Source: Escherichia coli
GTDB lineage: Bacteria; Pseudomonadota; Gammaproteobacteria; Enterobacterales; Enterobacteriaceae
NCBI RefSeq assembly: GCF_003334255.1
Contig: NZ_QOWU01000139.1
Direction: 5' to 3' (one strand)
Length of the DNA: 2,234 nucleotides
In this document: positions 1,127 through 1,891 of the stretch, piece after piece
Numbering within the stretch: position 1 is the first letter of the stretch
Layout of the letters: each line of letters opens with the position of its first letter
Translations under genes and position numbers: made by a program
The notes under the pieces: model-generated
Told to the model about the DNA's origin: nothing
Seen by the model: only the letters and a program-made list of their open reading frames with translations
The model's database searches: none

Positions 1127-1449
1127 TCGACTCCCGGCTGCGTGATGCTTTTACCGTCTTCCCTGACAGGCGGTAATGACACGTCTATGTTCAGCTTGAG
1201 TGCCATTGCGTACTCCGCCCGCGCGCCAGCTGAATCCTCCCAGCCTTCCAGCAAGTAAATGACATCGGCACACATGAGCATCGGAATACAAATGCTCATG
1301 TACTGCTGCTGGCTTAATCCGTCAGGCAACGTGGCAGGGTTCAGCACAACGTGCCCGTCTGCCGCGAGCCTCATCGCCTCTGTGAAAAACGCCGTTCTGT
1401 TGTGATCTTTGTATCCGGTCATTGGACCGGCGATATAAATCACTGCCAT
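1087..1449 (-). CDS. DUF4406-type protein, nucleoside 2-deoxyribosyltransferase-like fold, 120 aa
   Basis: ATG at 1449..1447 is preceded by GGGAGG at 6-nt spacing; stop TAA at 1089..1087. The N-terminal VIYIAGPMTG motif and the acidic EGWEDSAGARAEYAMA segment resemble the nucleotide-binding and catalytic-Glu regions of NDT-like proteins as I recall them. The start overlaps the stop of the upstream gene by 10 bp. Confidence 0.8.
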   Translation of the reverse strand: MAVIYIAGPMTGYKDHNRTAFFTEAMRLAADGHVVLNPATLPDGLSQQQYMSICIPMLMCADVIYLLEGWEDSAGARAEYAMALKLNIDVSLPPVREDGKSITQPGVDQTPHNQQINLSE

Positions 1450-1658
1450 GCTTTACCTCCCGTATTGCGTGTTGCTGTCAGCACGCGTACTTCTTCCATG
1501 TTCGTGGCGCAGAAGTGCGAACCGTTGATAAGGCGGATGTGATGCATCTCAGAATTGCGTGAGTCCTGGCGTGTCATGCCCTGGTCAATCAGGCTTTCGT
1601 CTACCTCGTACTGACGGCCGTTGGCTGTGAACCGGATAACGGTTGATTCCTGGATCAT
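1440..1658 (-). CDS. Small hypothetical phage-type protein, 72 aa
   Basis: ATG at 1658..1656 is preceded by AAGGAG at 6-nt spacing. ATGA start/stop overlap with the upstream gene (1655-1658) indicates translational coupling. Stop is TGA at 1442..1440. Confidence 0.7.
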   Translation of the reverse strand: MIQESTVIRFTANGRQYEVDESLIDQGMTRQDSRNSEMHHIRLINGSHFCATNMEEVRVLTATRNTGGKAWQ

Positions 1659-1891
1659 TGCTGACTCCTTTGCCCGGCAGATTTCTCGTTGAGCTGCTTT
1701 TTAAGGGTGGCGATTTCACTTTCCTGATCCTGAATTACCTGAATTGCTTCCATGGTGATCCTCAGTGAGATTGCTGAAGTGATAACGAGCTCTGGTCTTC
1801 CAGCAGCTGCGACAACTTTTGCTGCTTCCTCGTGTGCACGGGCGATGAGACGCAATTCCCGCAAAAGCTCTTTGTTGTTTTCGCTATTCAT
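1655..1891 (-). CDS. Small hypothetical phage-type protein, 78 aa, predicted helical (possibly a DUF2732-like early-region protein; uncertain)
   Basis: ATG at 1891..1889 with GGAG 7 nt upstream; stop TGA at 1657..1655 overlapping the next start. Sequence is rich in A, E, L and K, consistent with helices. The family assignment is from memory only. Confidence 0.7.
   Translation of the reverse strand: MNSENNKELLRELRLIARAHEEAAKVVAAAGRPELVITSAISLRITMEAIQVIQDQESEIATLKKQLNEKSAGQRSQQ

Follow-up and report, generated by a model that had tools for sequence, protein, structure and literature searches.

The window lies in the early operon of a P2-like prophage

We analyzed a stretch of 2,234 nucleotides from the Escherichia coli contig NZ_QOWU01000139.1 (hereafter the window). 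Over its whole length it shows 99.4% identity with a chromosomal segment of E. coli JNEC-KY204 (NZ_AP045180.1), where the locus is annotated as a P2-family prophage. One side of the JNEC-KY204 locus holds the genes for integrase, a C-type HTH repressor and Cox, and a long minus-strand operon runs through DUF4761, DUF4754, small ORFs, a 3'-5' exonuclease gene and a ParE-like gene, then through a DNA adenine methylase gene, orf78, orf72 and DUF4406, up to a convergent membrane-protein gene. Beyond the latter are a "derepression protein" gene, a 138-aa ORF, the gpA replication endonuclease gene and further genes, and P2-type portal, terminase, scaffold and capsid genes are found past the gpA region. 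By its position between Cox/C repressor/integrase and gpA, and by the presence of P2-family structural genes, the locus belongs to the P2-like (Peduoviridae) early operons, which bears out the assignment to a phage early operon in an earlier sequence-only reading of this DNA. Among sequenced phages, P88 and other Xuanwuvirus/Peduoviridae members come closest. On the minus strand, positions 1087-2234 of the window form part of the long polycistronic early operon (Pe/Cox-to-gpA) of an E. coli prophage that is P2-like and of the P88/Xuanwuvirus type, with the gene order Dam methylase, orf78, orf72, DUF4406. When the minus strand between 2234 and 1087 was scanned for consensus sites, nothing promoter-like or terminator-like was predicted. 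Few genomes carry the full cassette: of 5426 complete E. coli genomes, 18 have matches to 80% or more of positions 1087-1926.

The operon shares with other P2-like early (Pe) operons a backbone of Cox, DUF4761, DUF4754, small ORFs and an orf72-family gene, followed by the derepression protein gene, a small ORF and gpA, together with a divergent C-type repressor and integrase and many junctions that overlap by 4 nt (-4 junctions). It differs from them in two respects: the lineage of the window has the 3'-5' exonuclease, ParE-like and Dam genes upstream, and DUF4406 occupies the place of the winged-helix (wHTH) or Ead/Ea22 gene downstream of the orf72 gene. In locus L001 the genes upstream of Dam are a ParE-family toxin-like gene of 75 aa (14903-15130) and the 3'-5' exonuclease gene (15140-15721); the ParE-like gene has no annotated antitoxin neighbor and overlaps Dam by 4 nt.

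Genes of the minus-strand cassette

The frame at 1926-2234 (minus strand) is stop-free to the right edge of the window, with no in-frame stop in 2175-2234, and its translation equals the C-terminus of a 326-aa methylase annotated in L001. The latter matches TIGR00571 (dam) with 224 bits (cut-off 114.85), Pfam PF02086 spans its residues 13-266, and PGAP annotates a single methylase gene of 981 nt. This part of the window is therefore the 3' part of a gene for a Dam (D12-class N6-adenine) DNA methylase of 326 codons that continues past the window edge. The sequence-only reading had called a stand-alone zinc-ribbon protein here, which we reject: the 82-aa ORF concerned (1926-2174) has no upstream in-frame stop and is the C-terminal tail of Dam, and the CDAC-x8-CPDC motif that it carries is a short C-terminal appendage of the methylase. 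The same CxxC-x8-CxxC tail (residues 292-318; 1926-2050, minus strand) matches a short segment of RecE/exonuclease VIII models (NF007259, positions 526-552; phrog_20376).

The next gene, orf78 (1655-1891, minus strand; 78 aa), encodes a short relative of the N-terminal part of the phage family phrog_9338. Its profile matches are phrog_23826 (E = 1.6e-51) and phrog_9338 (E = 1.4e-5), and against the phrog_9338 protein of phage 705R2, which has 136 aa, hhalign reports a probability of 89%; phrog_9338 proteins have 136-156 aa, and it is their N-terminal half to which orf78 is related. Pfam gave no match to orf78, nor did tblastn against a phage collection, and relatives were found only through profiles. 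Its AF2 model (pLDDT 92, helices 3-29 and 33-77) predicts a helical hairpin with high confidence. The PDB matches of orf78 were only to designed helical repeats and are compositional, and we rejected them as a clue to function.

The third gene, orf72 (1440-1658, minus strand; 72 aa), encodes a small all-beta protein. Its family, phrog_3459, occurs only in enterobacterial P2-like early operons. When the orf72 model was compared with AFDB50 by Foldseek, longer enterobacterial proteins of 162-212 aa annotated as MarR-family or sigma-70 region 4 matched weakly in their N-terminal part (E of 8e-4 to 6e-3, TMq about 0.72).

The DUF4406 gene (1087-1449, minus strand; 120 aa) matches its family over the full length (Pfam PF14359, E = 3.5e-33, model positions 2-89 of 91). 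Residues 3-90 form a nucleoside 2-deoxyribosyltransferase-like domain, in line with the description of the matching family phrog_355 as nucleoside 2-deoxyribosyltransferase-like; a PDB sequence search with DUF4406 returned nothing significant. The C-terminal tail of about 30 residues is variable and frameshift-prone, and the 3' end of the gene overlaps the convergent plus-strand gene by 40 bp. The tail in the window, L001 and L007 (1087-1140, minus strand) is a frameshifted version, by a 1-nt deletion, of that in L009 and L010, so that this DNA is translated in a different frame and the stop comes 4 codons later. The tail past residue ~104 is probably free of functional constraint.

Median pairwise dN/dS values among the relatives are 0.47 for orf78, 0.17 for orf72 and 0.27 for DUF4406, all below 1, and all three are therefore real coding genes. 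None of the three has a PADLOC or NCBIfam match.

Overlapping junctions and Shine-Dalgarno sites

Two of the junctions overlap, as is expected of translationally coupled gene pairs, and both overlaps are exactly as had been claimed from the sequence and the ORF list. At orf78/orf72 the start codon of orf72 lies over the stop codon of orf78 in an ATGA (1655-1658, minus strand; tcat on the plus strand), a -4 junction. At orf72/DUF4406 the start of DUF4406 lies over the end of orf72 in ATGGCAGTGA (1440-1449, minus strand; tcactgccat on the plus strand): the ATG of DUF4406 precedes the orf72 TGA by 7 nt, so that the two genes share 10 nt (a -10 junction). The reading phase is that of the -4 class. 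If DUF4406 began at the in-frame GTG at 1443, the overlap would be one of 4 nt (GTGA); this start was rejected, because the Shine-Dalgarno (SD) site would then be 12 nt away and the ATG is the better start. PGAP also chose the ATG.

The strong SD sites that had been noticed inside the preceding genes are likewise present, each 6 nt from the start codon: AAGGAG for orf72 (1665-1670, minus strand, inside orf78; -8.2 kcal/mol) and GGGAGG for DUF4406 (1456-1461, minus strand, inside orf72; -11.6 kcal/mol). SD positions were assigned by eye, and the energies are those of the duplex with the 16S 3' end. By this measure GGGAGG is the strongest SD in the operon; as background, a value of -8 kcal/mol is attained by only 3.4% of the operon's 20-nt windows, and one of -10 kcal/mol by 1.2%. 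In local RNA folds, the mean unpaired probability over the SD regions is 0.38-0.51. We considered a model in which sequestration of the SD or start makes translation depend on the upstream ribosome, and rejected it, as the local folds give no convincing sequestration.

The junction between Dam and orf78 is of another kind. It is a 34-nt intergenic spacer (1892-1925, minus strand) from the Dam stop to the orf78 start, not an overlap, and the SD of orf78 (GGAG, 1899-1902, 7-nt spacer) lies within it and not inside the preceding gene, and is weaker (-6.1 kcal/mol).

Conservation and mosaicism among close relatives

The cassette is carried by several E. coli genomes and by ten viral-contig loci. 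The ATGA and ATGGCAGTGA junctions are unchanged in each of the 12 relatives that are intact, although regional DNA identity falls to about 86-90% among them. These relatives also retain both SD regions, with the variants AAGGGG and GGAGTC at the orf72 SD. The -10 junction is invariant in every relative that keeps both orf72 and DUF4406, and about 80 nt around it are almost invariant. Because the junctions are kept in the 12 intact loci, the overlaps are stable features rather than accidents of a single sequence.

Gene order, which the sequence-only reading had proposed to check together with the overlaps, is equally constant: every intact locus of the lineage of the window keeps Dam, orf78 (or an orf78-like gene), orf72 and DUF4406 in this order. 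That constancy would be expected if the overlapping genes encoded interacting partners of one module, for instance small regulators or adaptors for the DUF4406 enzyme and/or Dam, with coupling fixing their stoichiometry. We consider this explanation unlikely. The 12 loci are all close relatives, with proteins 72-100% identical, and their synteny may therefore mirror only recent ancestry; Dam and orf78 do not overlap across their 34-nt gap; and the cassette itself is mosaic, as seen in an alignment sample of nine relatives.

Temperate phage genomes classically evolve in a modular (mosaic) manner, with exchange at gene boundaries. In five relatives, identity to the window drops from 93-100% to about 72% at a point about 25 nt inside DUF4406. 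In L005 the DUF4406 protein is 75% identical to that of the window versus 100% for orf72, which indicates that DUF4406 alleles are exchanged independently of orf72 and again argues against a fixed set of partners. In L004 and L008, identity is only about 40-50% across orf78, with the breakpoint at the ribosome-binding site of orf72. The gene replacing orf78 in these two loci aligns with orf78 at an hhalign probability of 58%, and both weakly match phrog_9338; from these profile comparisons, it is probably a very divergent allele of the orf78 family rather than an unrelated gene, a point in favor of interacting partners. Moreover, L013 and L014 carry a natural deletion of the Dam tail, orf78 and the 24 N-terminal codons of orf72 and keep DUF4406 with its SD; the existence of such variants also speaks against one module. 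Identity changes sharply no more than about 25 nt from the orf78/orf72 and orf72/DUF4406 junctions, and the junctions themselves are the most conserved segments, which resembles the known pattern of modular phage evolution.

Gene partners in more distant phages

To the co-occurrence comparison about 25 loci contributed. Homologs of orf72 with 39-46% identity occur in the phages P88, Chuche, 705R2, Shae_phiSM and PhiR44_2, and in each of them the homolog is followed, at -4, by a winged-helix/MarR-type gene. In the loci L028-L030, which have more distant homologs, an HTH_24 gene follows at -4, and in L032 a Phage_ASH gene stands 33 nt after the homolog. These five phages and L028-L032 make up the P88-type loci; L031 looks degraded and was not used. 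Dam and DUF4406 are absent from the operon in 10 P88-type loci with an orf72 homolog. Conversely, DUF4406 genes of 60% identity are found in lambdoid prophages, where their -4 neighbors are the unrelated DUF977, DnaB-like, Ead/Ea22-like or DUF1382 genes. Across divergent elements, then, Dam, orf78, orf72 and DUF4406 do not recur together as neighbors, and the set falls apart in distant relatives. The order that stands in all 12 intact close relatives does not extend to the P88-type loci, in which Dam and DUF4406 are missing near the orf72 homologs.

A phrog_9338 gene is the immediate upstream neighbor of the orf72 homolog in 705R2 and Shae_phiSM, and in L028-L030 the two are one gene apart. 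This recurrence counts in favor of interacting partners, and a functional link between the orf78 and orf72 proteins may exist; P88, Chuche and PhiR44_2, however, have an orf72 homolog without any orf78-like gene. The recurring orf78-like/orf72-like neighborhood in some P88-type operons fits a shared operon backbone with insertions and deletions. As the finding that would count against its proposal, the sequence-only reading had named homologous elements in which the genes are routinely separated or independently transcribed: elements with separated genes exist for Dam and DUF4406, and for the orf78-like and orf72-like genes the neighborhood recurs in some relatives.

The wHTH gene that follows the orf72 homologs in P88-type phages matches the C-terminal part of PHROG profiles of 162-246 aa. 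Considered with the structural matches of the orf72 model, an orf72-like domain and a winged helix could be fused in some genomes. Two further candidates for related pairs were rejected. A 72-aa gene upstream of DUF4406 in the lambdoid locus L023 does not align with orf72, and the equal length is coincidental; and the hyp69-MarR pair downstream of gpA in L001 shows no similarity to the orf72-wHTH pair and is not a paralog of it.

Overlaps are common in operons of this type. The operon of the window has 18 same-strand junctions, of which 8 overlap (-4 in six cases, -1 and -10 in one case each); for eight P2-like early operons the count is 34 overlaps among 95 such junctions, with -4 in 29 of them. 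Since the same kind of junction links any inserted gene, and since breakpoints fall at or near the junctions, start/stop overlaps in such operons are unfit for inferring functional modules. The claim that the four genes form one functional unit is therefore not sustained: the overlaps are generic, the partners change, and the cassette is mosaic.

Compact layout and probable translational coupling

We favor, with a probability of about 0.7, the reading that the genes have the ordinary compact layout of a co-expressing operon, with probable termination-reinitiation at the overlaps, within a mosaic cluster that is not a functional unit. The -4 and -10 junctions, with SDs inside the upstream genes 6 nt before the starts, represent the standard compact architecture of P2-like early operons. 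A ribosome that ends an upstream small gene would be released beside the SD of the next gene, on that gene's start or a few nucleotides beyond it, and could reinitiate there; new 30S subunits could load at the junction SDs as well. The likely effect would be that every small accessory gene in the long mRNA gets translated whenever the operon is transcribed, without untranslated stretches in between. The orf78-like and orf72-like genes belong to the variable backbone of P88-type early operons. Dam, along with the exonuclease and ParE-like genes upstream of it, and DUF4406 are lineage-specific additions joined to their neighbors by the same kind of overlap. The layout speaks for co-expression of the genes and not for their products working together.

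The analysis shows the overlaps, the SDs, their conservation, the operon context and the mosaicism directly. Actual coupling at both junctions, and the mechanism by which it would take place, we infer, and coupling at orf78/orf72 and at orf72/DUF4406 is plausible. Four-nucleotide overlaps couple translation in E. coli experiments, and 13 of 14 natural overlapping pairs tested, five of them from E. coli, were strictly coupled (PMC6728339). Of all junctions on the E. coli chromosome, -4 is the most frequent, and the range from -8 to +6 takes in 24% of unidirectional pairs (PMC10666635). The termination-reinitiation systems of Huber et al. (E. coli and Haloferax volcanii; ATGA and TGATG) resemble the present locus in the same-strand arrangement, in the -4 ATGA of orf78/orf72, in the SD inside the upstream gene and in the polycistronic E. 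coli operon. The locus is unlike them at the other two junctions. The -10 overlap of orf72/DUF4406 is outside the common overlap lengths of -4, -1 and -8 (PMC10666635), and no experimental test of a -10 overlap was found in the sections of Huber et al. 2019 and 2023 used here (PMC6728339, PMC10666635). The +34 nt between Dam and orf78 exceeds the distance at which coupling survives there: a spacing of about 20 nt almost abolishes termination-reinitiation coupling in E. coli reporters (PMC10666635), which places Dam outside any tight coupling chain. The same source describes overlapping pairs as statistically enriched for subunits of heteromeric complexes (PMC10666635), a point against the favored reading.

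Alternatively, the overlaps could be neutral by-products of compaction and of start/stop turnover, each gene being translated independently from its own SD. Both SDs are strong (-8.2 and -11.6 kcal/mol), ideally spaced at 6 nt and largely unsequestered in local folds, and thus independent initiation could explain translation of the downstream genes. Simulation work explains many of the short overlaps between unidirectional genes by start/stop replacement (PMC3887535), and the contribution of the SD differs between genes (PMC6728339). This explanation is nevertheless improbable in our judgment, given the strict coupling of nearly all tested natural pairs. The invariance of the junctions where flanking codons diverge also fits selection on the junction, but exchange by recombination at shared junctions could produce it too. 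Under the favored reading of a compact co-expressing operon, the feature is of a well-known kind, with early-operon membership and co-expression plausible.

A more elaborate scenario is that orf78 and orf72 are a coupled pair of P88-type operons that was rewired from the winged-helix partner in this lineage to the DUF4406 enzyme beside Dam, forming a cassette whose stoichiometry the overlaps would set. We regard it as very improbable; if true, the rewired orf78/orf72/DUF4406 cassette would be an undescribed system for nucleotide or DNA modification, or for host takeover. What the analysis provides is chiefly a corrected annotation, with the mis-called zinc-ribbon protein now the tail of a Dam methylase and the window placed in a P2-like early operon. 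Beyond that its importance is small: orf78, orf72 and DUF4406 are candidates for a screen of phage accessory genes, and nothing points to a new mechanism. The C4/isrK module and the convergent moron-like membrane gene are the more distinctive elements of the window.

Other elements in the window

A full-length C4 antisense RNA (Rfam RF01695, 82.8 bits; 329-416, minus strand) and an isrK RNA (RF01394, 64.3 bits; 452-526, minus strand) lie, together with a weak c4 target-site match (487-539), just upstream of the "derepression protein" gene (51-272, minus strand), which is followed by the 138-aa ORF and gpA. The isrK RNA ends in a hairpin with a U-tail (472-457). This is an antisense-RNA antirepressor module of the P1/P4/Gifsy type within a P2-like early region. 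The DNA at 202-583 is common to about 1270 of 5426 complete E. coli genomes. Within the C4/isrK region, otherwise 95-100% conserved, positions 285-404 and 465-524 show only 77-92% identity in several relatives, and L007 diverges at these positions though it is nearly identical to the window elsewhere. The divergence may reflect variation in the immunity specificity of the antisense RNA and its targets.

The predicted membrane protein gene (659-1126, plus strand; 155 aa, phrog_6315) is convergent to the early operon and has no Pfam, NCBIfam or PADLOC match. By eye, a perfect TATAAT (592-597) with TTGTGT (570-575) precedes it. The gene looks like a moron, and any early transcription that ran on towards gpA would be antisense to the gene. 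An allele of 38% identity takes its place in 6 of the 9 aligned relatives.
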